Positions 4,631 through 62,475 of a DNA stretch of 64,000 bases are shown one piece after another. The notes beneath the pieces are model-generated. The model was not told the origin of the DNA. It made no database searches and saw only the letters and a list, made by a program, of their open reading frames with translations. Origin of the DNA: Mobula hypostoma (lineage: Eukaryota); assembly GCF_963921235.1 (NCBI RefSeq), contig NW_026948141.1:62001-126000 (forward strand), written 5' to 3'. Both the position numbers and the translations under genes were made by a program. The stretch's first letter is position 1. Each line of letters opens with the position of its first letter.

Positions 4631-5748
4631 ACCACACGGTAGGTTTATTCAGAAAGTTAGAAGGCATGGGATCCAGGGAAGTTTGGCCAGGTGGATTCAG
4701 AATTGGCTTGCCTGCAGAAGGCAGAGGGTGGTGGTGGAGGGAGTACATTCAGATTGGAGGATTGTGACTAGTGGTGTCCCACAAGGATCCGTTCTGGGAC
4801 CTCTACTTTTCATGATTTTTATTAACGACCTGGATGTCGGGGTAGAAGGGTGGGTTGGCAAGTTTGCAGACGATACAAAGGTTGGTGGTGTTGCAGATAG
4901 TGTAGAGGATTGTCAAAGATTGCAGAGAGACATTGATAGGATGCAGAAGTGGCAGATGGAGTTCAACCCAGAGAAGTGTGAGGTGGTACACTTTGGAAGG
5001 CCAAACTCCAAGGCAGAGTACAAAGTAAATGGCAGGATACTTGGTAGTGTGGAGGAGCAGAGGGATCTGGGGGTACATGTCCACAGATCCCTGAAAGTTG
5101 CCTCACAGGTAGATAGGGTAGTTAAGAAAGCTTATGGGGTGTTAGCTTTCATAAGTCAAGGGATAGAGTTTAAGAGTCGCAATGTAATGATGCAGCTCTA
5201 TAAAACTCTGGTTAGGCCACACTTGGAGTACTGTGCCCAGTTCCGGTCACCTCACTATAGGAAGGATGTGGAAGCATTGGAAAGGGTACAGAGGAGATTT
5301 ACCAGGATGCTGCCTGGTTTAGAAAGTATGCATTATGATCAGAGATTAAGGGAGCTAGGGCTTTACTCTTTGGAGAGAAGGAGGATGAGAGGAGACATGA
5401 TAGAGTTGTACAAGATAATAAGAGGAATAGATAGAGTGGATGGCCAGCGCCTCTTCCCCAGGGCACCACTGCTCAATACCAGAGGACATGGCTTTAAGGT
5501 AAGGGGTGGGAAGTTGAAGGGGGATATTAGAGGAAGGTTTTTTACTCAGAGAGTGGTTGGTGCGTGGAATACACTGCTTGAGTCAGTGATGGAGGCAGAT
5601 ACACTAGTGAAGTTTAAGGAACTACTAGACAGGTATATGGAGGAATTTAAGGTGGGGGCTTATATGGGAGACAGAGTTTGAGGGTTGGCACAACATTGTG
5701 GGCCGAAGGGCCTGTACTGTGCTATACTATTCTATGTTCTATGTTCTA
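4631..5748 (+). mobile_element. Young 5'-truncated CR1 LINE with open RT C-terminus (ORF 4683-5681)
   Basis: [25 protein letters not shown] motifs; (TTCTATG)n tail; near-identical to 56409-57585. Confidence 0.95.
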
Positions 5749-33221: not shown

Positions 33222-33318
33222 GGACCTCGGAACATCATTAACCAACCTGCAGGTGCTCTGGATGGCTCGCTCCGGACTAACAGACTTGGATGGAATTCCT
33301 GCTTTCTCTTCTCTAAAG
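33222..33318 (+). CDS. LRRC56: LRRC56 internal coding exon (97 nt; (R)DLGTSLTNLQVLWMARSGLTDLDGIPAFSSLK)
   Basis: Acceptor ttttctctgtcaatgtatAG and donor AAG|GTGATG. The peptide closely matches vertebrate LRRC56 (human RDLGTSLGHLQVLWLARCGLADLDGIASLPALK, recalled). It ends in phase 0, compatible with the next exon. Confidence 0.93.
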
Positions 33319-34137
33319 GTGATGTGCACCCTGAAACTTTGAGGTTATAACTGGTCAGAGCATAGAAAATTACAGCACACAATGTTGTGCCGCCCTTTTA
33401 ACCCAGCTAAGATCAATCTAACCCTTCTCCCCACACAGCCCTCCATTTTTCTATCATCCATCTGCCCATCTAACAGCCTCTACCACCACCCCTGGCATTG
33501 TATTTCATGTACCCACCGCTCTCTGTGTAAACAAAAAGCCTCCTTTGACATTCCCCTTAGCACCTTAAAATTATGACCCCTGGTATTAGCCATTTCTGCC
33601 CTGGATATGACTCTGTTACTGAGTGAAAGAAACAACTGGAATTGTGCAGAGACGAAGGACCGGCTAACTTGCTGTTTACCATTGCTTTGTGACAGTGTTC
33701 ATGATCAGGAATTCACTCAGATTAATTGGACACTGCCTAGACCCACTGGATCCACAAGTTCCTGTCAGCAAACTTATTTAAGTCCTTACAATATCAATGT
33801 TCACAGCAGAGGGGAGGCTATTCTTTCCATGATGTTTTGCCAGCTCTTTGCTGCTGCATTTCAAACTCTTCCACTCTGTCCTGGCCCACCTGGGAAATGG
33901 GGACTTATATGCCAGGCTGCTGTTTATAGACTTCAGTCCATCATACCCCAGAAATTGGTGCAGAAACTGTCCTTGCTGGGTCTCAACACCTTCCTCTGCA
34001 ACCGGATGCTAGACATCTTAACAGAAAGGCCACAGTCAGTCCGTGTTTTTTTTTATTCATTTACGGGATGTGGGCTTTGCCAGTTAAGTCAGCATTTATT
34101 GTCTGCTTAGTTGCTCAGTCCCATTCCACTGAGCACC

Positions 34138-35303
34138 GGTGCTCCCCAGGGCAGTGTACTCAGGTGCTCCCCAGGGCTGTGTACTCAGGTGTACTCAGGT
34201 GCTCCCTGGGCTTCCCAGGGCTGTGTACTCAGGTGTACTCAGGTGCTCCCCAGGGCTCTGTACTCAGGTGCTCCCCAGGGCTGTGTACTCAGGTGCTCCC
34301 CAGGGCTGTATACTCGGGTGCTTCCCAGGGCTGTGTACTCAGGTGCTCCCTGGTGCTCCCCAGGGCTGTGTACTCAGGTGCTCCCTGGGCTCCCCAGGGC
34401 TGTGTACTCAGGTGTACTCAGGTGCTCCCCAGGGCTGTATACTCGGGTGCTCCCCAGAGCTGTGTACTCAGGTGTACTCAGGTGCTCCCTGGGCTCCCCA
34501 GGGCTGTGTACTCAGGTGTACTCAGGTGTACTCAGGTGCTCCCTAGGCTTCCCAGGGCTGTGTACTCAGGTGTACTCAGGTGCTCCCCAGGGCTGTGTAC
34601 TCAGGTGCTCCCCAGGGCTGTGTACTCAGGTGCTCCCCAGGGCTGTATACTCGGGTGCTTCCCAGGGCTGTGTACTCAGGTGCTCCCTGGTGCTCCCCAG
34701 GGCTGTGTACTCAGGTGCTCCCTGGGCTCCCCAGGGCTGTGTACTCAGGTGCTCCCCAGGGCTCTGTACTCAGGTGCTCCCCAGGGCTGTGTACTCAGGT
34801 GCTCCCCAGGGCTGTATACTCGGGTGCTTCCCAGGGCTGTGTACTCAGGTGCTCCCTGGTGCTCCCCAGGGCTGTGTACTCAGGTGCTCCCTGGGCTCCC
34901 CAGGGCTGTGTACTCAGGTGTACTCAGGTGCTCCCCAGGGCTGTATACTCGGGTGCTCCCCAGAGCTGTGTACTCAGGTGTACTCAGGTGCTCCCTGGGC
35001 TCCCCAGGGCTGTGTACTCAGGTGTACTCAGGTGTACTCAGGTGCTCCCTGGGCTCCCCAGGGCTGTGTACTCAGGTGTACTCAGGTGTACTCAGGTGCT
35101 CCCTGGGCTTCCCAGGGCTGTGTACTCAGGTGCTCCCCAGGGCTGTGTACTCAGGTGTACTCAGGTGCTCCCTGGGCTTCCCAGGGCTGTGTACTCAGGT
35201 GCTCCCCAGGGCTGTGTACTCAGGTGTACTCAGGTGCTCCCCAGCGCTGTGTACTCAGGTATATTCAGGTGTACTCAGGTGCTCCCCAGGACTGTGTACT
35301 CAG
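34138..35303 (+). repeat. Complex minisatellite A1 (25-bp ggtgctccccagggctgtgtactca with 10-bp sub-repeats)
   Basis: Directly visible; modules ggtgtactca, ggtgctccct, gggcttccca. Confidence 0.97.
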
Positions 35304-35737
35304 CCCGCTGCTGTTCACACTGCTGGCCCATGACTGTCACAGGATTCAGCTCAAATGTTTGTGGATGACACAACAGTGGTTGGCCTCATCAACAATGATG
35401 AGGAGTCAGAGTAAGAGAGGAAGTGAAGCGACTGATGTGAGAATAACAACCTAAGTCTGATTGTGGAGAAGGCCACAGAAACGTTGTGGACTTCAGGAAG
35501 TTGCAAATGGACCATCCTCCTCTGCATACATGGCTTCTCCATAGAGAGAGTTAAGTGCACCAAGTTCCTGGGAGTTCACATCACGGATGATCTCACCTGG
35601 TCCCTTAATAGCTCTTCCCTGAACAAGAAGGCACAGAAGTGCCTCCACTTCTGAAGGAGGTTGAGGTAAACAAGGCTCTCCCACGTCCGCCCCACCCCAA
35701 TCTTAATTGCAATTTACAGAAGCACCACTGAGAGCAT

Positions 35738-37513
35738 CCGGACAAGCTGCATCTCCATCTGGTCTGGGAGCGGCAGAGCATCGGACCGGACAAGCTGCAT
35801 CTCCATCTGGTCTGGGAGCGGCAGAGTATCGGACCGGACAAGCTGCATCTCCATCTGGTCTGGGAGCGGCAGAGCATCGGACCGGACAAGCTGCATCTCC
35901 ATCTGGTCTGGGAGCGGCAGAGCATCGGACCGGACAAGCTGCATCTCCATCTGGCATGGGAGCAGCAGAGCATCGGACCGGACAAGCTGCATCTCCATCT
36001 GGCATGGGAGCAGCAGAGCATCGGACCGGACAAGCTGCATCTCCATCTGGTCTGGGAGCGGCAGAGCATCGGACCGGACAAGCTGCATCTCCATCTGGTC
36101 TGGGAGCGGCAGAGCATCGGACCGGACAAGCTGCATCTCCATCTGGCATGGGAGCAGCAGAGCATCGGACCGGACAAGCTGCATCTCCATCTGGCATGGG
36201 AGCGGCAGAGCATCGGACCGGACAAGCTGCATCTCCATCTGGCATGGGAGCGGCAGAGCATCGGACCGGACAAGCTGCATCTCCATCTGGTCTGGGAGCG
36301 GCAGAGCATCGGACCGGACAAGCTGCATCTCCATCTGGCATAGGAGCGGCAGAGCATCGGACCGGACAAGCTGCATCTCCATCTGGCATGGGAGCGGCAG
36401 AGCATCGGACCGGACAAGCTGCATCTCCATCTGGCATGGGAGCGGCAGAGCATCGGACCGGACAAGCTGCATCTCCATCTGGCATGGGAGCGGCAGAGCA
36501 TCGGACCGGACAAGCTGCATCTCCATCTGGCATGGGAGCGGCAGAGCATCGGACCGGACAAGCTGCATCTCCATCTGGCATGGGAGCAGCAGAGCATCGG
36601 ACCGGACAAGCTGCATCTCCATCTGGCATGGGAGCAGCAGAGCATCGGACCGGACAAGCTGCATCTCCATCTGGCATGGGAGCAGCAGAGCATCGGACCG
36701 GACAAGCTGCATCTCCATCTGGTCTGGGAGCAGCAGAGCATCGGACCGGACAAGCTGCATCTCCATCTGGTCTGGGAGCGGCCGAGCATCGGACCGGACA
36801 AGCTGCATCTCCATCTGGCATGGGAGCGGCCGAGCATCGGACCGGACAAGCTGCATCTCCATCTGGCATGGGAGCGGCAGAGCATCGGACCGGACAAGCT
36901 GCATCTCCATCTGGCATGAGAGCGGCAGAGCATCGGACCGGACAAGCTGCATCTCCATCTGGCATGGGAGCGGCAGAACATCGGACCGGACAAGCTGCTT
37001 CTCCATCTGGCATGGGAGCGGCAGAGCATCGGACCGGACAAGCTGCATCTCCATCTGGCATGGGAGCGGCAGAACATCGGACCGGACAAGCTGCTTCTCC
37101 ATCTGGCATGGGAGCGGCAGAGCATCGGACCGGACAAGCTGCATCTCCATCTGGTCTGGGAGCGGCAGAGCATCGGACCGGACAAGCTGCATCTCCATCT
37201 GGTCTGGGAGCGGCAGAGCATCGGACCGGACAAGCTGCATCTCCATCTGGTCTGGGAGCGGCAGAGCATCGGACCGGACAAGCTGCATCTCCATCTGGCA
37301 TGGGAGCGGCAGAGCATCGGACCGGACAAGCTGCTTCTCTATCTGGCATGGGAGCGGCAGAGCATCGGACCGGACAAGCTGCATCTCCATCTAGTCTGGG
37401 AGCGGCAGAGTATCGGACCGGACAAGCTGCATCTCCATCTGGTCTGGGAGCAGCAGAGCATCGGACCGGACAAGCTGCATCTCCATCTGGTCTGGGAGCG
37501 GCAGAGCATTGGA
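35738..37513 (+). repeat. 48-bp minisatellite B1, 37 units
   Basis: Unit ccggacaagctgcatctccatctgg(tct/cat)gggagcggcagagcatcgga; 1776 bp = 37 x 48. Confidence 0.97.
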
Positions 37514-37612
37514 CCGGAAGTTCCTACAAAGGATTGTGAGAACAGCTGAGAGGATCCTAGGGGTCTCCCTACCATTTATTGAGGACCATTTATCAGGAGA
37601 ACTGTGTACACA

Positions 37613-38114
37613 GGCGCTCCCCAGGGCTGTGTACTCAGGTGCTCCCCAGGGCTGTATACTCGGGTGCTTCCCAGGGCTGTGTACTCAGGTGCTCCCTGGT
37701 GCTCCCCAGGGCTGTGTACTCAGGTGCTCCCTGGGCTCCCCAGGGCTGTGTACTCAGGTGTACTCAGGTGCTCCCCAGGGCTGTATACTCGGGTGCTCCC
37801 CAGAGCTGTGTACTCAGGTGTACTCAGGTGCTCCCTGGGCTCCCCAGGGCTGTGTACTCAGGTGTACTCAGGTGTACTCAGGTGCTCCCTGGGCTTCCCA
37901 GGGCTGTGTACTCAGGTGCTCCCCAGGGCTGTGTACTCAGGTGTACTCAGGTGCTCCCTGGGCTTCCCAGGGCTGTGTACTCAGGTGCTCCCCAGGGCTG
38001 TGTACTCAGGTGCTCCCCAGGGCTGTGTACTCAGGTGTACTCAGGTGCTCCCCAGCGCTGTGTACTCAGGTATATTCAGGTGTACTCAGGTGCTCCCCAG
38101 GACTGTGTACTCAG
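37613..38114 (+). repeat. Complex minisatellite A2
   Basis: Same modules as A1. Confidence 0.97.
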
Positions 38115-38548
38115 CCCGCTGCTGTTCACACTGCTGGCCCATGACTGTCACAGGATTCAGCTCAAATGTTTGTGGATGACACAACAGTGGTTGGCCTCAT
38201 CAACAATGATGAGGAGTCAGAGTAAGAGAGGAAGTGAAGCGACTGATGTGAGAATAACAACCTAAGTCTGATTGTGGAGAAGGCCACAGAAACGTTGTGG
38301 ACTTCAGGAAGTTGCAAATGGACCATCCTCCTCTGCATACATGGCTTCTCCATAGAGAGAGTTAAGTGCACCAAGTTCCTGGGAGTTCACATCACGGATG
38401 ATCTCACCTGGTCCCTTAATAGCTCTTCCCTGAACAAGAAGGCACAGAAGTGCCTCCACTTCTGAAGGAGGTTGAGGTAAACAAGGCTCTCCCACATCCG
38501 CCCCACCCCAATCTTAATTGCAATTTACAGAAGCACCACTGAGAGCAT

Positions 38549-41044
38549 CCGGACAAGCTGCATCTCCATCTGGTCTGGGAGCGGCAGAGCATCGGACCGG
38601 ACAAGCTGCATCTCCATCTGGTCTGGGAGCGGCAGAGCATCGGACCGGACAAGCTGCATCTCCATCTGGTCTGGGAGCGGCAGAGCATCGGACCGGACAA
38701 GCTGCATCTCCATCTGGCATGGGAGCAGCAGAGCATCGGACCGGACAAGCTGCATCTCCATCTGGCATGGGAGCAGCAGAGCATCGGACCGGACAAGCTG
38801 CATCTGCATCTGGTCTGGGAGCGGCAGAGCATCGGACCGGACAAGCTGCATCTCCATCTGGCATGGGAGCGGCAGAGCATCGGACCGGACAAGCTGCATC
38901 TCCATCTGGCATGGGAGCGGCAGAGCATCGGACCGGACAAGCTGCATCTCCATCTGGCATGGGAGCGGCAGAGCATCGGACCGGACAAGCTGCATCTCCA
39001 TCTGGCATGGGAGCGGCAGAGCATCGGACCGGACAAGCTGCATCTCCATCTGGTCTGGGAGCGGCAGAGCATCGGACCGGACAAGCTGCATCTCCATCTG
39101 GTCTGGGAGCGGCAGAGCATCGGACCGGACAAGCTGCATCTCCATCTGGCATGGGAGCGGCAGAGCATCGGACCGGACAAGCTGCTTCTCCATCTGGCAT
39201 GGGAGCAGCAGAGCATCGGACCGGACAAGCTGCATCTCCATCTGGCATGGGAGCAGCAGAGCATCGGACCGGATAAGCTGCATCTCCATCTGGTCTGGGA
39301 GCAGCAGAGCATCGGACCGGACAAGCTGCATCTCCATCTGGTCTGGGAGCGGCCGAGCATCGGACCGGACAAGCTGCATCTCCATCTGGCATGGGAGCGG
39401 CCGAGCATCGGATCGGACAAGCTGCATCTCCATCTGGCATGGGAGCGGCAGAGCATCGGACCGGACAAGCTGCATCTCCATCTGGCATGGGAGCGGCAGA
39501 GCATCGGACCGGACAAGCTGCATCTCCATCTGGCATGGGAGCGGCAGAACATCGGACAGGACAAGCTGCATCTCCATCTGGCATGGGAGCGGCAGAACAT
39601 CGGACCGGACAAGCTGCTTCTCCATCTGGCATGGGAGCGGCAGAGCATCGGACCGGACAAGCTGCATCTCCATCTGGCATGGGAGCGGCAGAACATCGGA
39701 CCGGACAAGCTGCTTCTCCATCTGGCATGGGAGCGGCAGAGCATCGGACCGGACAAGCTGCATCTCCATCTGGTCTGGGAGCGGCAGAGCATCGGACCGG
39801 ACAAGCTGCATCTCCATCTGGTCTGGGAGCGGCAGAGCATCGGACCGGACAAGCTGCATCTCCATCTGGTCTGGGAGCGGCAGAGCATCGGACCGGACAA
39901 GCTGCATCTCCATCTGGTCTGGGAGCGGCAGAGCATCGGACCGGACAAGCTGCATCTCCATCTGGCATGGGAGCGGCAGAGCATCGGACCGGACAAGCTG
40001 CATCTCCATCTGGCATGGGAGCGGCAGAGCATCGGACCGGACAAGCTGCATCTCCATCTGGCATGGGAGCGGCAGAGCATCGGACCGGACAAGCTGCATC
40101 TCCATCTGGCATGGGAGCGGCAGAGCATCGGACCGGACAAGCTGTATCTCCATCTGGTCTGGGAGCGGCAGAGCATCGGACCGGACAAGCTGCATCTCCA
40201 TCTGGTCTGGGAGCGGCAGGGCATCGGACCGGACAAGCTGCATCTCCATCTGGCATGGGAGCGGCAGAGCATCGGACCGGACAAGCTGCTTCTCCATCTG
40301 GCATGGGAGCGGCAGAGCATCGGACCGGACAAGCTGCATCTCCATCTGGTCTGGGAGCGGCAGAGTATCGGACCGGACAAGCTGCATCTCCATCTGGCAT
40401 GGGAGCAGCAGAGCATCGGACCGGATAAGCTGCATCTCCATCTGGTCTGGGAGCAGCAGAGCATCGGACCGGACAAGCTGCATCTCCATCTGGTCTGGGA
40501 GCGGCCGAGCATCGGACCGGACAAGCTGCATCTCCATCTGGCATGGGAGCGGCCGAGCATCGGACCAGACAAGCTGCATCTCCATCTGGCATGGGAGCGG
40601 CAGAGCATCGGACCGGACAAGCTGCATCTCCATCTGGCATGGGAGCGGCAGAACATCGGACCGGACAAGCTGCTTCTCCATCTGGCATGGGAGCGGCAGA
40701 GCATCGGACCGGACAAGCTGCATCTCCATCTGGCATGGGAGCGGCAGAACATCGGACCGGACAAGCTGCTTCTCCATCTGGCATGGGAGCGGCAGAGCAT
40801 CGGACCGGACAAGCTGCATCTCCATCTGGTCTGGGAGCGGCAGAGCATCGGACCGGACAAGCTGCATCTCCATCTGGTCTGGGAGCGGCAGAGCATCGGA
40901 CCGGACAAGCTGCATCTCCATCTGGTCTGGGAGCGGCAGAGTATCGGACCGGACAAGCTGCATCTCCATCTGGTCTGGGAGCAGCAGAGCATCGGACCGG
41001 ACAAGCTGCATCTCCATCTGGTCTGGGAGCGGCAGAGCATTGGA
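38549..41044 (+). repeat. 48-bp minisatellite B2, 52 units
   Basis: 2496 bp = 52 x 48. Confidence 0.97.
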
Positions 41045-41143
41045 CCGGAAGTTCCTACAAAGGATTGTGAGAACAGCTGAGAGGATCCTAGGGGTCTCCC
41101 TACCATTTATTGAGGACCATTTATCAGGAGAACTGTGTACACA

Positions 41144-41876
41144 GGCGCTCCCCAGGGCTGTATACTCGGGTGCTTCCCAGGGCTGTGTACTCAGGTGCTC
41201 CCTGGTGCTCCCCAGGGCTGTGTACTCAGGTGCTCCCTGGGCTCCCCAGGGCTGTGTACTCAGGTGTACTCAGGTGCTCCCCAGGGCTGTATACTCGGGT
41301 GCTCCCCAGAGCTGTGTACTCAGGTGTACTCAGGTGCTCCCTGGGCTCCCCAGGGCTGTGTACTCAGGTGTACTCAGGTGTACTCAGGTGCTCCCTGGGC
41401 TTCCCAGGGCTGTGTACTCAGGTGCTCCCCAGGGCTGTGTACTCAGGTGTACTCAGGTGTACTCAGGTGCTCCCTGGGCTCCCCAGGGCTGTGTACTCAG
41501 GTGTACTCAGGTGTACTCAGGTGCTCCCTGGGCTTCCCAGGGCTGTGTACTCAGGTGTACTCAGGTGCTCCCCAGGGCTGTGTACTCAGGTGTACTCAGG
41601 TGCTCCCTGGGCTTCCCAGGGCTGTGTACTCAGGTGCTCCCCAGGGCTGTGTACTCAGGTGTACTCAGGTGCTCCCTGGGCTTCCCAGGGCTGTGTACTC
41701 AGGTGCTCCCCAGGGCTGTGTACTCAGGTGTACTCAGGTGCTCCCTGGGCTTCCCAGGGCTGTGTACTCAGGTGCTCCCCAGGGCTGTGTACTCAGGTGT
41801 ACTCAGGTGCTCCCCAGCGCTGTGTATTCAGGTATATTCAGGTGTACTCAGGTGCTCCCCAGGACTGTGTACTCAG
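41144..41876 (+). repeat. Complex minisatellite A3
   Basis: Same modules as A1. Confidence 0.97.
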
Positions 41877-42310
41877 CCCGCTGCTGTTCACACTGCTGGC
41901 CCATGACTGTCACAGGATTCAGCTCAAATGTTTGTGGATGACACAACAGTGGTTGGCCTCATCAACAATGATGAGGAGTCAGAGTAAGAGAGGAAGTGAA
42001 GCGACTGATGTGAGAATAACAACCTAAGTCTGATTGTGGAGAAGGCCACAGAAACGTTGTGGACTTCAGGAAGTTGCAAATGGACCATCCTCCTCTGCAT
42101 ACATGGCTTCTCCATAGAGAGAGTTAAGTGCACCAAGTTCCTGGGAGTTCACATCACGGATGATCTCACCTGGTCCCTTAATAGCTCTTCCCTGAACAAG
42201 AAGGCACAGAAGTGCCTCCACTTCTGAAGGAGGTTGAGGTAAACAAGGCTCTCCCACATCCGCCCCACCCCAATCTTAATTGCAATTTACAGAAGCACCA
42301 CTGAGAGCAT

Positions 42311-42982
42311 CCGGACAAGCTGCATCTCCATCTGGTCTGGGAGCGGCAGAGCATCGGACCGGACAAGCTGCATCTTCATCTGGTCTGGGAGCGGCAGAGC
42401 ATCGGACCGGACAAGCTGCATCTCCATCTGGTCTGGGAGCGGCAGAGCATCGGACCGGACAAGCTGCATCTCCATCTGGCATGGGAGCGGCAGAGCATCG
42501 GACCGGATAAGCTGCATCTCCATCTGGCATGGGAGCAGCAGAGCATCGGACCGGACAAGCTGCATCTCCATCTGGTCTGGGAGCGGCAGAGCATCGGACC
42601 GGACAAGCTGCATCTCCATCTGGTCTGGGAGCGGCAGAGCATCGGACCGGACAAGCTGCATCTCCATCTGGTCTGGGAGCGGCAGAGCATCGGACCGGAC
42701 AAGCTGCATCTCCATCTGGCATGGGAGCGGCAGAGCATCGGACCGGACAAGCTGCTTCTCCATCTGGCATGGGAGCGGCAGAGCATCGGACCGGACAAGC
42801 TGCATCTCCATCTGGTCTGGGAGCGGCAGAGTATCGGACCGGACAAGCTGCATCTCCATCTGGTCTGGGAGCAGCAGAGCATCGGACCGGACAAGCTGCA
42901 TCTCCATCTGGTCTGGGAGCAGCAGAGCATCGGACCGGACAAGCTGCATCTCCATCTGGTCTGGGAGCGGCAGAGCATTGGA
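42311..42982 (+). repeat. 48-bp minisatellite B3, 14 units
   Basis: 672 bp = 14 x 48. Confidence 0.97.
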
Positions 42983-44859
42983 CCGGAAGTTCCTACAAAG
43001 GATTGTGAGAACAGCTGAGAGGATCCTAGGGGTCTCCCTACCATTTATTGAGGACCATTTATCAGGAGAACTGTGTACACAGGCCCCTTAGTATTAAGAA
43101 CCCCAACGATCCATCCAGCATCTCCTTTGACTTTCTACCATCAGGCAGGAGACTTCAATGCATAAGGACAAGAACAGTCAGAATGGGAAACAGTTTCTTC
43201 CTCAGGCCATGAGGCTTCTGAATTCCCAGCCGCATTGCATTTGAAGTGCCACCAGTTAATTTGTTCTGCACCCTACAAAATGTAATTTATGCACTTTGTT
43301 TATTTATGTGTAATTCATCTGTGGATTTTATTGTTACTTTCCTAAGTTATTGTGTGTTATACGTGTGCTATGTGTACTTCTGTGCTTTACACCCTGGTCC
43401 ACGTTGTCTTGTTTGACGGTTTACATGTATATAGTTAAATGACAATAAACTTGACTTGACTTAATATTGCAAAGTCTCCTGTCTGTGTGGGTGCCATATC
43501 CGTGTATCCTTGTACCTGTTTAAGATGGCACTACTGAACAAGGGCGACAGCTCACTGGTAGTTTAAAAAAAAGGCAAGAGTTTCGACAAAAAACCACTAA
43601 AAACAGCTTTTCTGAGTTAAATAGTGTTAAATTATCACCGCAAACAGTGAGGGGATGAGCGATGGTGAAGTGAGTTCGGGATTGAGCCAGGATGGTGAGA
43701 TGCAGAATTGATGCAGTCAGATGCAGTGAAGTTCCGATGCCCGTACAGCTGGCTCAGGGGTGAGATTGGATCGCTCTGGGTGCCGAGAGGAGAAATCAGG
43801 GCAGAGGAGATTCAATGCCTGTACAGCTGGCTCAGGTGCGAGATTGGATCACTCTGGGCATTGAGCTGATTTGAAGAGCTTGAGAGTGGCTTCAGACTAG
43901 GCCATGAAATCTGGGCCTGGAGTGAATCACTGGGCGGCTTCATCTAGTCCCCGAACCCTTCACAGCAGCTGGGTACTACTGCGGTGGACAATCTGCTGTT
44001 TACACAATTTAAACACTGGCCCAGATCGTAGGTGAGAGCCAATTTTGCTCGCTCTCCATGATGTTCACTCCCTCTCCAGGGCATCCGAACCTTTCACTGT
44101 TCCATTGTTTGGTCAGTTTCAACGCTAGCCCAGACTGAAAAGACAAGGTGTCAGGTTCTGAGGCATGAGCCGATTTTGCTTGTTCTCCATGATGGTCACT
44201 GCTCTCTCCATGGTGCTGAGGCTATGAAGACAGCCCTGGCTGCTGTCTCTGTGCCTGCTAATATGATGAACTGGTAAGTGAGGCCTTGGGCCTACTCCAT
44301 TGTGCTCTGGGATTTCGATCTGAGGTCTCAATTTGGTTCAGAATGCTGTTGTTCGCTTCAGTTACTGGCATGATTTGTGTCCTTTTTTCCCCTTTCTCTT
44401 GCACTTCAGGTGATGGTATTTTATTATTTTTTTTCTTTTAATTGGGTTTTTTTGGGTTTCTTGATTTGTGTTTATCTGTAAGCAAACAAATCTCAAGGTT
44501 GTATAATTTAATCTCTTTGATAATAAGTGTACTTTGAATCTTTATATCAGTTTGAAGCTAGTCAACTGCCTGGACTGCTCTTCCCATCAATGAATCAATC
44601 TGAAACAATTTGACTGCCTTTTCTCCATAGTCCATGTAGTCGCAAATCAATTCTGCTCTTCTGACATCTCCACTTATATTCGTATTTGCAGTTTGTTGTC
44701 TTTTGAACATTTGTTGTTTATCTGTCGTGTTGGGTGTGGTCTTTCATTGATTCTATCATGTTTCTTATATTTACTATGAATGCCCACAAGAAACTGCATC
44801 TCAGGGTTGTATATGGTGATAATAAATCTACTTTGAACTATGAACCTTGAAATTTTTTT

Positions 44860-45372
44860 TGATTCAAGATTGTTTAATGTAATTTCCAGTACACAAGTAT
44901 AAAGGAGAATAAATAACTTTTACTCCAAAAGTAGCACGAGAAAACACAATAAGATAAAGAAGACAATAATAAAAAAGCACAATAAATATAAGTACACAGA
45001 TAGCTTATGCATTGTATGTCGGTAAAGTGACGCCAGGCACAGGAGTGTCTGTACATAGGGTGACTCTGGCAGGAAGTGATGAGGTAGTGGTGGTTGGGGG
45101 TGTGGAGGGGTGGGCTAGTGGGTTGAAATATTGATCAGCTGGACTGCTTGGGGAAAGTAACTATTTTCGAGCTGGTGGCCCTGATGTGGATGCTGATGTG
45201 AGTGGGACAAACAGTCCTCGAGCAGGGTGAGTGGGATCCTTCATGATGTTACTGGCCCTTTTCCGGCACCTTTCTGTGTATATGTCCCTGATGGCAAGTA
45301 GGCAGATACCAACAATGCATTGGACAGTTTTGACTGTCCGTTGTAGAGACATCCTGTCTGCTGCAGTGCAGT
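44860..45372 (-). mobile_element. Rex1/Babar 3' fragment
   Basis: ORF 45161-45352 LQRTVKTVQCIVG..IRDIYTERCRKRASNIMKDPTHP; 3'UTR shared with 16435. Confidence 0.85.
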
Positions 45373-51179: not shown

Positions 51180-52121
51180 ATGCCTCCTGAGACGGTGATG
51201 TGCCTCTCATGTGAGATGTGGCAGTCTTGGGGGAACGCCCCTCTCCCGCAGAGTCACATCTGCCAGAAGTGCATACGGCTGGGCGATCTGGAAGATCGTG
51301 TAAGGAATCTGGAGCAGCAGCTGGATGACTTTCGACTCATAAGGGAGAATGAGGCAGTCATAAATGAGAGCTACAGGGAGGTAGTCACACCTAGGCTGTC
51401 GGAAGCAGGTCGTTGGGTGACAGTCAGAGGGGGGAAAGCGAAGGTGAGCAGATAGGTAGTGCAGAGCACCCTTGTAGCCATTCCCCTGAATAACAAGTTT
51501 ACCGTCCTGGATACTGTTGGCGGGGACGACCGACCAGGTGTGAGCCACGGTGGCAGGGCCTCCGGCGCTGAGTCTGACCCTGTGGTGCTGAAGGGTGGGA
51601 AGGAGAAGAGGAGAGCTGTCGTCATTGGAGACTCTATAGTCAGGGGAGCAGACAGGAGATTTTGTGGATGTGAGAAGGACACCCGCATGGTTTGTTGCCT
51701 CCCGGGTGCCAGGGTCCGGGATGTCTCTGACCAGGTGCACAACGTCCTGGTACAAGAGGGAAAGCAGCCAGAAGTCGTGATACATGTTGGTATCAATGAC
51801 ATAGGCAGGAAGAGGGATGAGGCCCTGAAGTGTGGGTTTCGGGAACTAGGCAGAAGGCTGAAGAACAGGACCTCAAGGGTGGCGTTCTCAGGATTGCTGC
51901 CAGTGCTACGTGACAGTGATGGTAAGAATTGGAGGAGATGGCAGTTGAATGCGTGGCTGAGGAGCTGGTGCAGGGTGCAGGGTTTTAGATTTTTGGATCA
52001 CTGGGATCTCTTCTGGGGAAGGTGGGACCTGTACAGATTGGATGGGTTGCACCTGAACTCGAGGGGGAGCAATATCCTTGCAGGTAGGTTTGCTAGCATG
52101 GTTCGGGAAGGTTTAAACTAA
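51180..52121 (+). pseudogene. CR1 ORF1: CxxC..CxxC zinc finger, coiled coil, SGNH esterase; one in-frame TAG at 51453
   Basis: CLSC...CQKC, LEDRVRNLEQQL, GDSIVR, PGAR, HVGIND, DGLHLN. Confidence 0.9.
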
Positions 52122-53971
52122 TTTGCAAGGGGGATGGAACCTGGGGCGATAGAGCAGTGAAAGAAGTGCATGGAGTAAAGCCAGATCTAACATACAGAGA
52201 GGCTTTAAGGAAAGAGAAGCAGAATAAACGGTGTAAAGACAGTAAGGTAGAAGGGCTGAAATGTGTGTACCTCAATGCAAGAAGCATCAGGAACAAAGGT
52301 GATGAACTGAGAGCTTGGATACATACATGGAATTATGATGTAGTGGCCATTACAGAGACTTGGCTGGCACCAGGGCAGGAATGGATTCTCAATATTCCTG
52401 GATTTCAGTGCTTTAAAAGGGATAGAGACGGGGGAAAAGGGGAGGAGGGGTGGCATTACTGGTCAGGGATACCATTACAGCTACAGAAAGAGTGGGTAAT
52501 GTAGCAGGATCCTCTTTTGAGTCAGTATGGGTGAAAGTCAGGAACAGGAAGGGAGCAGTTACTCTACTGGGGGTATTCTATAGGCCCCCTGGTAGCAGCA
52601 GAGATACAGAGGAGCAGATTGGGAGGCAGATTTTGGAAAGATACAAAAATAACAGGGTTGTTATCATGGGTGACTTTAACTTCCCTAATATTGATTGGCA
52701 CCTGATTAGTTCCAAGGGTTTAGATGGGGCAGAGTTTGTTAAGTGTGTCCAGGACGGATTCCTGTCACAGTATGTGGACAGGACGACCAGGGGGAATCCA
52801 TACTAGATCTAGTACTAGGTAATGAACCGGGTCAGGTCACAGATCTCTCAGTGGGTGAGCATCTGGGGGACAGTGACCACCGCTCCCTGGCCTTTATAAT
52901 TATCATGGAAAAGGATAGAATCAGAGAGGACAGTAAAATTTTTAATTGGGGAAAGGCAAATTATGAGGCTATAAGGCTATATCTTGTGGGTGTGAATTGG
53001 GATGATGTTTTTGCAGGGAAATGTACTATGGACATGTGGTCGATGTTTAGGGATCTCTTGCAGGACGTTAGGGATAAATTTGTCCTGGTGAGGAAGATAA
53101 AGAATGGTAGGATGAAGGAACCATGGGTGACAAGTGAGGTGTAAAATCTAGTCAGGTGGAAGAAGGCAGCATACATGAGGTTTAGGAAGCAAGGGTCAGA
53201 TGGGTGTATTGAGGAATATAGGGAAGCAAGAAAGGAGCTTAAGAAGGGGCTGAGGAGAGCAAGAAGGGGGCATGAGGCCTTGGTGAGGAGGGTAAAGAAA
53301 AACCCCAAGGCATTCTTCAATTATGTGAAGAACAAAAGGATGACAGGAGTGAAGGTAGGACCGATTAGAGATAAAGGTGGGAAGATGTGCCTGGAGGCTG
53401 TGGAAGTGAGCAAGGTCCTCAATGAATACTTCTCTTCGGTATTCACCAATGAGAGGGAACTTGATGATGGTGAGGACAATATGAGTGAGGTTGATGTTCT
53501 GGAGCATGTAGACATTAAGGGAGAGGAGGTGTTGGAGTTTTAAAATACATTAGGACGGATAAGTCCCCGGGGCCTGACGGAATATTCCCCAGGCTGCTCC
53601 ACGAGGCGAGGGAAGAGGTTGCTGAACCTCTGGCTAGGATCTTTATGTCCTCGTTATCCACGGGAATGGTACCGGAGGATTGGAGGGAGGCAAATGTTGT
53701 CCTCTTGTTCAAAAAAGGTAGTAGGGATAGTCTGGGTAATTATAGACCAGTGAGCCTTACGTCTGTGGTGGGAAAGCTGCCGGAAAAGATTCTTAGAGAT
53801 AGGATCTATGGACATTTAGAGAATCATGGTCTGATCAGGGACAGTCAGCATGGCTTTGTGAAGGGCAGATTGTGTCTAACAAGACTGATAGAGTTCTTTG
53901 AGGAGGTGACCAGGCATATAGATGAGGGTAGTGCAGTGGATGTGATCTATATGGATTTTAGTAAGGCATTT

Positions 53972-56403
53972 AGTAGTAGTGGTAGTAGTCATACTTTATT
54001 GATCCCGGTGGAAATTGGTTTTCGTTTCAGTTGTACCATTAATAATTAAACAGTAATAAAACCATAAATAGTTAAATAGTAATATGTAAATTATGCCAGG
54101 AGATAAGTCCAGGACCAGCCTATTAGCTCAGGGTGTCTGACCCTCCAAGGGAGGAGTTGTAAAGTTTGATGGCCACAGGCAGGAATGACTTCCTATGACG
54201 CTCTGTGTTGCATCTCAGTGAAATGAGTCTCTGGCTGAATGTACTCCTGTGCCCACCCAGTACATTATGTAGCGGATGGGAGACATTGTCCAAGATGGCC
54301 TGCAACTTAGACAGCATCCTCTTTTCAGACACCACCATGAGAGAGTCCAGTTCCATCCCCACAACATCACTGGCCTTACGAATGAGTTTGTTGATTCTGT
54401 TGGTGTCTGCTACCCTCAGCCTGCTGCCCCAGCACACAACAGCAAACATGATAGCACTGGCCACCACAGACTCGTAGAACATCCTCAGCATCGTCCAGCA
54501 GATGTTAAAGGACCTTAGTCTCCTCAGGAAATAGTGACGGCTCTGACCCTTCTTGTAGACAGCCTCAGTGTTCTTTGACCAGTCCAATTTATTGTCAATT
54601 TGTATCCCCAGGTATTTGTAATCTTCCACCATGTCCACACTGACCCCTGGATGAAAACAGGGGTCACCGGTACCTTAGCTCTCCTCAGGTCTACCACCAG
54701 CTCCTTAGTCTTTTTCACATTAAGCTGCAGATAATTCTGCTCACACCATGTGACAAAGTTTCGTACCGTAGCCCTGTACTCAGCCTCATCTCCCTTGCTG
54801 ATGCATCCAACTATGGCAGAGTCATCTGAAAACTTCTGAAGATGACAAGACTCTGTGCAGTAGTTGAAGTCCGAGGTGTAAATGGTGAAGAGAAAGGAAA
54901 ACAAGACAGTCCCCTGTGGAGCCCCAGTGCTGCTGATCACTCTGTCGGACACACAGTGTTGCAAGCACATGTACTGTGGTCTGCCAGTCAGGTAATCAAG
55001 AATCCATGACACCAGGAAAGCATCCACCTGCATCGCTGTCAGCTTCTCCCCCAGCACAGCAGGGCGGATAGTGTTGATCGCACTGGAGAAGTCAAAAAAC
55101 ATGACCCTCACAGTGCTCGCTGGCTTGTCCAGGTGGGCGTAGACACGGTTTAGCAGGTAGACGATGGCATCCTCAACTCCTAGTCGGGGCTGGTAGGCGA
55201 ATTGGAGGGGATCTAAGTGTGGTCTGACCATAGGCCAGAGCAGCTCCAGAACAAGTCTCTCCAGGGTCATCATGATGTGGGAGGTCAATGCCACTGGTCT
55301 GTAGTCATTGAGGCCGCTGGGGCGCGGTGTCTTCTGCACAGGGACGAGGCAGGATGTCTTCCACAGTACAGGAACCCTCCAGAGCCTCAGGCTCAGGTTG
55401 AAGACATGGTGAAGTACTCCACATAGTTGAGGGGCACAGGCTTTGAGCACCCTGGTACTGACACCATCCAGTCCTGCAGCCTTGCTCGGGTTGAGACGTT
55501 TCAGCTGTCTTCTCACCTGTTCAGCTGTGAAGCCCACCGGTGGTTTCGTGTGGGGAAGGGGTATAGTCTTGAGAGCAGGGTGGGGGACTGTGAGGAGGGG
55601 TAGGAGGGGAGAGTGGAATATGTGTTGGCTGGGGGCTGACAACAGATGACTCATGTGGGGGCTGGGCAAGGGCCACAATGTCAAATCTGTTAAAGAACAG
55701 GTTAAGTTCGTTGGCCCTGTCCACGCTGCCTTCAGCTCCTCTGTTGCTAGTTTGCCGGAACCCAGTGATGGTCCTCATCCCACTCCAGACCTATCTCATG
55801 TTGTTCTGCTGAAGTTTCCACTCAAGCTTCCTCCTGTACCTGTCTTTAGCCTCCCTGATCCTGGCTTTCAGATCCCTCTCTATTGCCCTCAGCTCCTCCC
55901 TATTTCCATCTTTAAACACCCTCTTTTTAGCGTTCAGGATATCCTTAATGTCCTTTATTACCCATGGCTTGTTATTTGAATAACAAAGGATAGTTCTTGT
56001 CGGAACATTGCAGTCCACACAGAAGTTGATGTAATCAGTGATGCACTCTGTGAGCCCATCAATGTCCTCTCCATGTGGCTCACAGAGTGTCTGCCAGTCT
56101 GTCACCTCAAAACAACCCTGGAGCGCCTCATTAAGCCTCCTCCGACCATTTCCTCACTGTCCTCGAGGTTGCAGGTTTACTCTTCACCAGAGGCCCGTAG
56201 CAGGGTTTTAGATGCACCAGGTTGTGATCTGACCTTCCCAATGGGGGGAGGGGAGAGGAGCTGTATGCATCCTTAACGTTAGCGTACATCAAATCCAGAG
56301 TCCTCTCCCCTCTGGTCATACAGCTCACATACTGCGTGAAGTTGGGCAGTCTTCTAGCCTTGGTTACATGGTTGAAGTCACCCGAGATGGTAATGAGGGC
56401 ACT
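53972..56403 (-). mobile_element. Young 5'-truncated Rex1/Babar LINE (APE C-terminus + RT)
   Basis: SGDFNH, SDHNLV, KAAGLDG, DYRPVALTS, FFDFSSA, TGAPQGTV, QKFSDD; AATAAA + (CTA)-like tail; CATTT at both ends (53967-71 / 56404-08). Confidence 0.95.
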
Positions 56404-58161
56404 CATTTGACAAGGTTCCAAATGGTAGTCTTATTCAGAAAGTCAGAAGGCATGGGATCCAGGGAAGTTTGGCCAGGTGGATTCAGAATTGGCTTGCTTG
56501 CAGTAGGCAGAGGGTCGTGGTGGAGGGAGTACATTCAGATTGGAGGGTTGTGACTAGTGGTGTCCTACAAGAATCTGTTCTGGGACCTCTACTTTTCGTG
56601 ATTTTTATTAACGACCTGGCTGTGGGGGTGGAAAGTGGGTTGGCAAGTTTGCAGACGACACAAAGGTTGGTGGTGTTGTAGATAGTGTAGAGGATTGTCA
56701 AAGATTGCAGAGAGACATTGATAGGATACATAGACATCTGTACATAGACAGATACATAGCCCATAGACATTGTGGGCTGAGAAGTGGCAGATGGAGTTCA
56801 ACCCGGAGAAGTGTGAGGTGGTACACTTTGGAAGGATAAACTCCAAGGCAGAGTACAAAGTAAATGGCAGGATACTTGGTAGTGTGGAGGAGCAGAGGGA
56901 TCTGGGGGTACATGTCCACAGATCCCTGAAAGTTGCCTCACAGGTAGATCGGGTAGTTAAGAAAGCTTATGGGGTGTTACCTTTCATAAGTCGAGGGGTT
57001 GAGTTTAAGAGTTGCGATGTAATGATGCAGCTCTATAAAACTCTGGTTAGGCCACACTTGGAGTACTGTGTCCAGTTCTGGTCGCCTCACTATAGGAAGG
57101 ATGTGGAAGCATTGGAAAGGGTACAGAGGAGATTTACCAGGATGCTGCCTGATTTAGAGAGTATGGATTATGATCAGAGATTACGGGAGCTAGGGCTTTA
57201 CTCTTTGGAGAGAAGGAAGATGAGAGGAGACATGATAGAGGTGTTCAAGATATTAAGAGGAATAGATAGAGTGGATAGCCAGCGCCTCTTCCCCAGGGCA
57301 CCTCTGCTCAATACAAGAGGACATGGCTTTAAGGTAAGGAGTGGGAAGTTCAAGGGGGATATTAGAGGAAGGTTTTTTACTCAGAGAGTGGTTGGTGCGT
57401 GGAATGCACTGCCTGAGTCAGTGGTGGAGGCAGATACACTAGTGAAGTTTAAGAGACTACTAGACAGGTATATGGAGGAATTTAAGATGGTGGGTTATAT
57501 GGGAGGCAAGGTTTGAGAATTGGCACAACATTGTGGGCTGAAGGGCCTGTACTGTGCTGTACTATTCTATGTTCTATGTTCTATGATCTTTGGACTGTGG
57601 CGGGAAACCAGAGCATCTCTCTTACCTTAAGTGTATGCCCTCTGGTATTATACATTTCAACTCTGGGGGAAAAGGTACCGTCTGTCTACTCTATCTACAT
57701 CTCTCATAATCTTGTAAACCTCTGTCAGATCTCCCCTCAGTCTCTGCCACTCCAGAGAAAACAACCAAAATTTGTCCAACCTCTTGTTATAGCTCCTACC
57801 CTCTAATCCAGTAAGTATCCTGGTAAACCACTTGTGCACCCTCCCCAAAACCATTCTAATTGAGTGACAGAATTTAGTTTATATTTATGAAAGGGATGTG
57901 GGGTTCACAGGCTGAGCCAGTGTTCAATTGTCCATCCCTAGCTGCCCTGGAGAAGATGGCTGTGAGCTGCCTTTTCAAACTCCTGCAGGCCTTGAGGTGT
58001 GGGCGGAATGCTGTTTCGGGGGTTATTTCCAGTGACTGTTCAACTTCAAGTTCAATTGTCATACAACCAAAGGAAACTACATTTGTCTGGGGCCAAGGTG
58101 CAAAACACAGAACCATCGCTCACACACAGCACACAGTGCATATCGCACATATCACACATAT

Positions 58162-59605: not shown

Positions 59606-60444
59606 GCTGATATATTTCCAAGTTAGGATAGTGTGTGGTTTGGAGGGCAACTTCCAGGGGCTGGTGGTTAGAGGTGGTGGATCTTGGTGGGTTACTGCAG
59701 TGTGTCCTGTAAATGATACAAACAGCTACTATTGCGCATCAGTATTGGAGTGAGTAAATACAGGTAGTTGTGCATGGTCTGCCTGTCAAATGGGCTGCTG
59801 TGTCCTGTATCTGTTGTCAAGATTCTTGTGTTATTGAAGCTGCACTTAAAGTTCAAAGTAAATTTATTATCAAAGTACATATGTGTCACAATATACAACA
59901 CCGAGATTCATTTCCGTGTGGGTACTCACAGTAAATACAAAGCAACACAATAGAATCATTGAAAGACCACACCCAACAGGACAGACAAACAACCAATGTG
60001 CAAAAGACAATACGTAAAGAATAAAGAAACAGTAGATATTGAGAACATGAAATGAAGTCCTTGAAAGTGAAAGACGAATGGAGAGTGTTCTACCACACTC
60101 CCGACTTGAGCCTTGTAGATGATGGATGGGCTTTTGGCAGGTGGGGGGTGAGTTACTCACTGCAGGAATCCCAGTCTCTGACCTGTTCTTGTAGTCATAC
60201 AGTGTGCTCAGCGAATCCAGTTCAGACTCTGATGATCTACAATGCTCGATATCAATAGTGGGGCCTTCAGTGATTGTAATACTATCAAATGTCAGGGTGG
60301 GAGCTGGATCTTGTTGCATATCGTCATTGCCCAGCTCTGGTGTGGCAGTCATGTTATTCATCACCTATCAGCCCAGCCCGGATATTGTCATTTGGATATT
60401 GGTTGCTTCATTATCTGAGGAGATACAAATGGTCTTTCTTTTTA

Positions 60445-62277: not shown

Positions 62278-62475
62278 GAACTGTATGTGGCGTACAACAA
62301 CATCTCAGACGTTAGCCCGGTCAGCATGCTAGAGCACCTGGAAGTGCTCGACCTGGAAGGGAACAATATCGAAGATATTGTGCAGATCCACTACATAGCT
62401 CTGTGCCACAGGCTGAATACCCTCACGCTGGAAGGAAACCCTTTGTGCTTTCAACAAAACCCAGGGGCCGCAGAG
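62278..62475 (+). CDS. LRRC56: LRRC56 next coding exon (198 nt; ELYVAYNNISDVSPVSMLEHLEVLDLEGNNIEDIVQIHYIALCHRLNTLTLEGNPLCFQQNPGAAE)
   Basis: Strong polypyrimidine tract ending ccacAG, donor GAG|GTAACA. The LRR repeats match recalled human ELYASYNNISDLSPLCLLEQLEVLDLEGN...LTLEGN and join the upstream exon in frame. Confidence 0.95.

Follow-up and report, generated by a model that had tools for sequence, protein, structure and literature searches.

In the 64,000-nucleotide stretch of Mobula hypostoma DNA analysed here (the window; NCBI RefSeq assembly GCF_963921235.1, contig NW_026948141.1, positions 62,001 to 126,000), an intron of the gene LRRC56 contains a dead long interspersed nuclear element (LINE), part of which has given rise to two minisatellites, A and B, and has been triplicated in tandem together with them. 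The compound structure consists of array A, 434 bp, array B and 98 bp, repeated three times head to tail on the forward strand (positions below are those of the window). We consider it probable that this is a neutral, locus-specific repeat built in four steps, for which a function is neither needed nor indicated.

In the first copy, array A1 (34137-35303; 1167 bp, with 52 units of 10, 25, 34 and 35 bp) derives from the codons of the reverse transcriptase (RT) motif GAPQGCVLS. It is followed by spacer 1 (35304-35737, 434 bp), which corresponds to the end of the RT and a PF09004-like region with stops and frameshifts and carries a private G35685, by array B1 (35738-37517; 37 x 48 bp), which derives from LINE C-terminal codons between two CCGGA pentamers, and by spacer 2 (37518-37615, 98 bp), which ends at junction 1, between 37615 and 37616. 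The second copy comprises array A2 (37616-38114; 499 bp, 23 units), whose first 280 bp are identical to A1 from 34776, spacer 1 (38115-38548, 434 bp), array B2 (38549-41048; 52 x 48 bp, including a block duplicated within the array) and spacer 2 (41049-41146), which ends at junction 2, between 41146 and 41147, with the same join as junction 1. In the third copy, array A3 (41147-41876; 730 bp, 35 units) has its first 255 bp identical to A1 from 34801, spacer 1 (41877-42310) is identical to that of copy 2, array B3 (42311-42986) has 14 x 48 bp, and spacer 2 (42987-43084), with the donor site 43070-43084 inside it, runs on into unamplified LINE. When parsed into units, B1, B2 and B3 reach 37512, 41043 and 42981, respectively.

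An earlier reading of the letters by themselves (the sequence-only reading) had described three copies with offsets of 2811 and 3762 bp. These are indeed the offsets of spacer 1, those of spacer 2 being 3531 and 1938 bp. The single spacer difference that it had noticed, G35685 against A38496 and A42258, is also the only one in 3 x 532 bp of spacer, and spacer 2 is identical in all three copies. The stop-bearing spacers are therefore identical but for one base, as expected from its proposal that amplification came after inactivation of the element. Open frames of up to 1141 codons run across the arrays, and they were considered and rejected as real genes: the units are poor in stops, 48 is a multiple of 3, and stops and frameshifts interrupt the spacers.

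The amplified part extends over 8947 bp, which collapse to 610 bp, and it begins 820 bp past the end of the upstream coding exon. The growth from about 1.2 to about 9.5 kb, some 600 bp from an exon, that had been read earlier applies to the whole LINE fragment, which collapses to about 1.27 kb once arrays and copies are removed and begins about 550 bp past the exon, but not to the amplified part. Minisatellite accounts for about 7.3 of the 8.9 kb. Therefore, array growth, and not the triplication, contributed most of the length. The duplicated parts measure 2840, 3531 and 1938 bp. As in the macrosatellites D4Z4 and DXZ4, kilobase units lie head to tail at one locus, so this side of the earlier term 'macrosatellite' stands; D4Z4, however, has a 3.3-kb unit in up to 100 copies, and instead of tens of copies only three, of 1.9-3.5 kb, are present here (three in the assembly, 2.5-3.3 by depth). 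The three unequal copies thus make up a tandem triplication, at most a nascent macrosatellite.

The reality of this structure was assessed with public runs, all taken as contigs (n = 15: four each from organisms A, B and C, those of A being deep, and three tiny ones). The deep organism A runs, including X1 and X3, represent one sample, perhaps the source of the assembly. Four runs were aligned to 42920-44919, and the results below refer to 8 pieces per run, beside which there are 73,786 further pieces. Rows that differed at 6 or more positions within about 100 nt were treated as paralogues and removed. The depth of contigs measures copy number roughly, and its reach does not include array lengths; summed depth mixes paralogues and was excluded from copy-number estimates.

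It had been set beforehand that a real multi-copy structure would branch at 43084, with the junction path ending 30 letters beyond. A 119-nt contig of organism A (X3 record 9) matched 42996-43084 without a difference and then continued for 30 letters unlike the flank, as predicted; its depth of 14.2, against 7.08 and 5.9 for two difference-free flank contigs, corresponds to 2.5-2.6 copies. Another (X1 record 1; 43012-43152, no difference) reached a depth of 23.7, where four flank contigs free of differences averaged 12.65; the estimate is 3.3 copies, the expected depths being 12.6, 17.6 and 22.5 for one, two and three copies. In organism B, record 17 of run X5 spans 43084 with 2 differences at a depth of 5.82 against a mean of 5.59, or 1.1 copies, where three would give 10.2, and record 19 bridges the LINE end into the flank. 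Therefore, organism B shares the insertion, and spacer 2 is present there once. The listed pieces of organism C (run X9) all differed by about 9% or more. Private substitutions in the three copies of the assembly are transitions in 12 of 14 cases (P = 8e-5 against random error).

The structure is therefore real; it is local, and specific to organism A's lineage. An assembly artefact, in which one unit or two haplotypes had been written three times, would agree with the near-identity of the spacers, and the contigs come from one sample without a spanning long read. We nevertheless regard it as very improbable and already largely refuted, since one contig built from reads departs from the flank path exactly at 43084, with some 2.2-fold the single-copy depth, a second indicates n = 3.3, each copy has its own array pattern and the private changes are rich in transitions, and two single-copy haplotypes cannot yield three different copies; a heterozygote of two and three, or three and four, copies is possible. 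Equally, the compound unit might belong to a dispersed mobile family, such as an SVA-like retroposon bearing a variable number of tandem repeats, inserted in tandem. The parent LINE is abundant (summed contig depth about 72,000 against about 12 for single-copy sequence), but the locus-exact spacer 2 reaches only about three copies' depth, the units lack a 3' tail, the only tail following copy 3, and organism B holds the same insertion at one copy. In place of the near-identical dispersed copies with 3' tails of their own that mark an SVA-like family, there are about three copies' depth and one tail, and this origin is hardly credible, although diverged compound copies may exist elsewhere in the genome. 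The sequence-only reading had named both explanations as those that could overturn it, and neither agrees with the branching at 43084, the depth or the single copy in organism B.

The sequence of the junctions indicates how the copies were joined. Both internal junctions read ACTGTGTACACAGGC followed directly by GCTCCCCAGGG, and the third copy continues with CCCTTAG into the LINE 3' end. As junctions 1 and 2 are identical, the join arose once. The best match of a 13-nt stretch of the array A unit to the 958-nt rest of the LINE is 12/13 and lies exactly at the breakpoint, and none of 300 shuffles holds a 12/13 match anywhere. Therefore, the join was guided by homology, in agreement with the earlier proposal that similarity to the array word led to the junction and that the last copy continues normally. 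A join into the start of array A (34132-34140) was rejected: 5 of 7 bases match there, and the downstream sequence fits internal A1 and not the first unit.

The same proposal held further that the minisatellite had created this homology, so that the larger duplication would have been impossible without the array. That the join used an array-internal unit stands: 250-280 bp after it match internal A1 exactly, and the bases that follow have that context only through the array. However, the terminal unexpanded motif (35291-35303) matches the donor (43070-43082) at 12/13 as well, and in the LINE frame Cys-Val is encoded at the RT site as well as at the downstream one. The array lengthened the match by one G and took the number of targets from one native site to 26 exact words within A1, so that an internal join is expected by numbers alone. 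Since the unexpanded motif is an equally good match, the homology was multiplied by the array and not created by it, and the stronger claim is unlikely to be right. Among relatives with the downstream motif, Val follows Cys in 0/37 and Ile in 23/37, and the downstream Cys-Val match may be special to the subfamily or to this copy. Junction 2 has the better-fitting template, the word ahead of its partner scoring 12/15 where that of junction 1 scores 11/15, and it may therefore represent the original join.

The origin of the two arrays is visible in the intact relatives of the LINE, in most of which the array motifs are single (GAPQGCVLSP is present in 22 of 37 motif matches). Both arrays are formed by units of 10-100 bp, head to tail, with variant units interspersed. 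The base unit of array A is 25 bp, and that of array B, which represents 16 codons of the C-terminal region, is exactly 48 bp, without an indel in any of 103 units. On either side of array B is a CCGGA pentamer, the two 48 bp apart and both following AGAGCAT directly, an arrangement that fits slippage between short flanking direct repeats (5-10 bp), as described for minisatellite birth in PMC3389668. Array A has a 12-bp palindrome (34132-34143) and about 54 extra nt at its start. The start palindrome and the donor site (43071-43082) are both perfect 12-bp palindromes, a coincidence noted after the fact that depends in part on the array word being nearly palindromic; 25 such 12-mers exist in the window, 9 of them in one TA run. 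Hairpin folding was tried as a cause of array instability and rejected, as dinucleotide shuffles fold as well or better in 54/200 and 194/200 cases (z -0.56 and +1.92).

The arrays had diversified before the triplication. A1, A2 and A3 end in the same four rare units, with one private change in A3, and the starts of A2 and A3 are also identical to A1 from 34270 and 34295, respectively, besides 34776 and 34801. In array B, variants occur at six unit positions in all three copies and at two more in copies 1 and 2, and the order of units is common to the copies beyond chance, the observed scores being reached by 0, 0 and 7 of 1000 shuffles. As the copies share both array variants and their order, the arrays came first. 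At 42969, the majority letter of the LINE family, A, is the minority variant of array B at unit position 35, where the majority G is probably the derived state.

The parent fragment is, as the sequence-only reading had supposed, a dead RT-encoding LINE; it lies in sense orientation to LRRC56. It is truncated at its 5' side inside the RT, similarity to intact relatives starting at about 33869, and its single-copy 5' part (33869-34136, forward strand) was recognised by tblastn of these relatives (E 1e-12 to 1e-18) with an 18-codon gap. The single-copy 3' end (43085-43462, forward strand) comprises the last codons, the 3' untranslated region, an AATAAA signal (43444-43449) and, downstream of it, a short (GACTT)n tail at about 43451-43462. 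A search with the C-terminal piece returned 2066 proteins at E <=0.001, of which 150 were listed. The relatives, at about 50-62% identity, had RVT_1 in 6 and PF09004 in 8 of 8 scanned, in that order. When six were aligned to the window, five spanned all three single-copy pieces and one spanned two, with stops and frameshifts visible. All four runs have loose contig ends at 43462, and 160-236 contigs per run extend past this position with an identical GACTT word. Therefore, 43462 is the 3' end of the LINE family.

Two features, the RT and the short 3' repeats, fit Rex1/Babar, the candidate clade name given in the earlier reading, Rex1 being described as a non-LTR (long terminal repeat) element with an RT and a 3' untranslated region followed by short oligonucleotide repeats (PMC6274825). 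A further feature of that clade, an AP endonuclease within the same open reading frame, is beyond the reach of this copy, which is truncated inside the RT. A word-indexed search yielded no named reference sequence, and no literature that joins DUF1891 with Rex was found. At about 34045-34120, some 54 extra nt that begin with a T run break the LINE just before array A. They have no second copy within the window and may come from the tail of a different, opposite-strand retroelement.

The age of the duplication was estimated relative to the separation of organisms A and B, which differ at 26/1318 positions (2.0%) in six orthologous pieces. At this rate, at most one difference in 532 bp has a probability of 3e-4. 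Private changes amount to 1/1596 spacer bases (0.06%) and 14/8309 bases overall (0.17%), which would place the event at about 6-17% of the per-lineage A/B distance, young compared with the species split and yet not a fresh mutation. The earlier word 'recent' is thus kept in this relative sense and goes no further. Absolute dating at the rate of the epaulette shark, 7e-10 per generation (PMC10587355), would put the event at about 1-2 million generations and the A/B split at about 14 million, a result that looks too old and was rejected in favour of the relative age.

Taken together, four steps would account for the structure. In the first, visible in the data themselves, the 5'-truncated LINE inserted in sense orientation in the LRRC56 intron before the split of organisms A and B, and then decayed. 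In the second, two coding motifs duplicated locally into minisatellites A (25 bp) and B (48 bp), which gained variant units; their origin and order are observed, and slippage at CCGGA is the putative route for B. In the third, a single template switch or unequal exchange would have joined 43070-43084 to an internal array A unit through the 12/13-nt match, producing a tandem duplication of part of A, spacer 1, B and spacer 2. Junction and register are directly readable and the repair pathway is conjectural; the match was already in the LINE, and the array multiplied the landing sites and may have been the unstable spot. In the fourth, unequal crossover or conversion across kilobases of tandem homology would have recopied the second unit and reused the junction, as the identical junctions and shared variants suggest, and the six arrays would have kept changing length.

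Copies 2 and 3 share A at the spacer single-nucleotide difference and T at position 6 of array B, and copy 1 has neither. These shared states fit a second duplication, that of unit 2, through an unequal exchange whose crossover lay late in the unit. It is rather unlikely that the unit instead circularised at the junction and was re-inserted by rolling-circle copying, with both extra copies made in one event. Such an event would leave identical junctions and copies about equally far apart in private changes, as is seen (6, 6 and 2), but it does not account for the two states that copies 2 and 3 share to the exclusion of copy 1, nor for arrays that differ up to 3.7-fold in unit number. Both points need later change, so that stepwise exchange needs fewer steps, although the two are inseparable with one haplotype.

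Several observations weigh against the four-step history. The variants shared by copies 2 and 3 may be ancestral or derived. The ends of array A share just 1 nt, which leaves its birth unexplained, and the base just before the switch is mismatched (C vs T), so that microhomology at the join is imperfect; this would reflect the extension of a mispaired 3' end or a later change of T to C, before the second step. The 30 extra letters of X3 record 9 are known by their number, X1 and X3 derive from one sample that is perhaps the source of the assembly, and array lengths and order are those of the assembly. Finally, the single copy of organism B is that of spacer 2, and the arrays may or may not be present there.

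The LRRC56 coding exon upstream of the repeat (33222-33318, forward strand; 97 bp with AG/GT borders) corresponds to residues 110-141, approximately, of Mobula birostris LRRC56 (P0004), and the following coding exon (62278-62474, forward strand, 3' limit approximate) matches annotated LRRC56 protein, with 100% identity to P0004 and 97% to Hypanus sabinus. Both exons fall on consecutive parts of P0004. Therefore, the repeat sits, as had been supposed, within an LRRC56 intron, whose length is about 29 kb. No LRRC56 exon was found in positions 1-33221 of the window by tblastn with P0004 and P0005, and given these exon-free first 33 kb, the intron before exon 33222-33318 may be longer still. A PDB search with the exon sequence gave generic leucine-rich repeat matches only.

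The idea that the repeat is functional and tunes the splicing or expression of LRRC56 could draw on its position, 820 bp from a coding exon, on the sense orientation of the LINE and on 98 CAGGT words in array A. However, none of the 98 words lies in the stronger donor context CAGGT[AG]AG, in folding, neither array does better than shuffled sequence (z -0.56 and +1.92), organism B manages with a single copy and both flanking exons match the annotated LRRC56 protein. We therefore hold a functional role to be extremely improbable; the sequence gives no indication of function and no sign of an effect on LRRC56.

Other elements were observed in the same window. A long LINE with a GDSL-esterase first open reading frame, an endonuclease and an RT occupies 51456-57583 and is split at about 54050-56400 by an opposite-strand element with RT and PF09004, whose frames are well kept; the host resumes at about 56418. 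The LINE 3' parts at 4632-5748 and 56418-57583 are about 94% identical at a distance of 52 kb and are probably young dispersed copies. On the reverse strand, 59873-60364 holds a 164-codon open frame, acidic and rich in Ser/Thr, without a Pfam match.

Every step has a precedent, and the repeat is of an ordinary kind of growth. In the human elements reported by Ahmed and Liang in 2012 (PMC3389668), where 7,276 tandem repeats that arose from transposable elements make up 23% of mini- and satellites, arrays were likewise born inside one inserted element by local duplication, and array B fits the model of short flanking direct repeats cited there; here, by contrast, two minisatellites 434 bp apart in one copy are nested in a higher-order triplication. 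For a system described in 2013 (PMC3648361), one illegitimate junction within a retroelement sets the monomer, which homology-based exchange then copies, as would have happened here, but that system is an LTR element in large centromeric arrays, whereas ours is non-LTR, intronic, in three copies and with a minisatellite-guided junction. The squamate satellites derived from short interspersed nuclear elements (SINEs; Vassetzky et al. 2023, PMC10702118) are similar in that part of a retroposon is in tandem, with the last unit continuing into the element, and in that many loci remain short, single instances; they differ in their SINE source, simple monomers and many loci, against a LINE coding region, a compound monomer and one locus seen. 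A minisatellite at a duplication breakpoint is known from human 16q24.1 (Dharmadhikari et al. 2014, PMC4411736), where the minisatellite is large and unstable, truncated segments of it lie in the junction and replication template switches were invoked; that event is de novo, megabase-sized and complex, whereas this one is a simple 3-kb tandem unit, fixed in the haplotype and amplified again. No published report of exactly this nesting (a higher-order unit that contains two minisatellites born of a single LINE copy) was found in a search that left most subscription papers and supplements outside.

Near-identical second copies of pieces of this LINE type were seen in 7 of the 150 listed predicted proteins, from other genomes (P0125, P0132, P0135, P0136, P0162, P0236 and P0247). 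They were picked by eye from a diagonal scan, whose own filter named four, one wrongly, and may be tandem duplications or neighbouring young insertions. P0247 has three near-identical tandem copies of the C-terminal piece (offset 121 amino acids), each ending near the junction motif; known from the protein alone, these ends may be exon borders of the gene model.

In batoids, L2/CR1/Rex is reported as the main LINE family, with 12.5-22% of the genome (10.64898/2026.10.27.761883), and in sharks and rays repeats are reported to lengthen introns (10.1101/2025.06.08.657570). The locus described here indicates that ray introns can lengthen without new insertions, from 0.6 to 8.9 kb in this case. Its worth is that of a legible example, which lets one read the founding sequence, the birth of each minisatellite, the one junction and an orthologue in single copy, so that the order from element to minisatellite to higher-order repeat is shown at one locus, beyond assumption. 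If other members of the family had this junction too, or if animals differed in copy number, the seeding of larger duplications by minisatellites would become measurable, and the repeat would serve as a highly variable marker. Going further, the LINE family might carry two sites that resemble each other (Cys-Val codons in the RT and a Cys-Val palindrome downstream) and slippage-prone motifs, by which dead copies would repeatedly pass from minisatellite to kilobase duplication, this locus being a still-polymorphic macrosatellite at three copies. We think this quite unlikely, but if true, the thousands of family copies would be a natural experiment on how duplication rate depends on the number of minisatellite targets.

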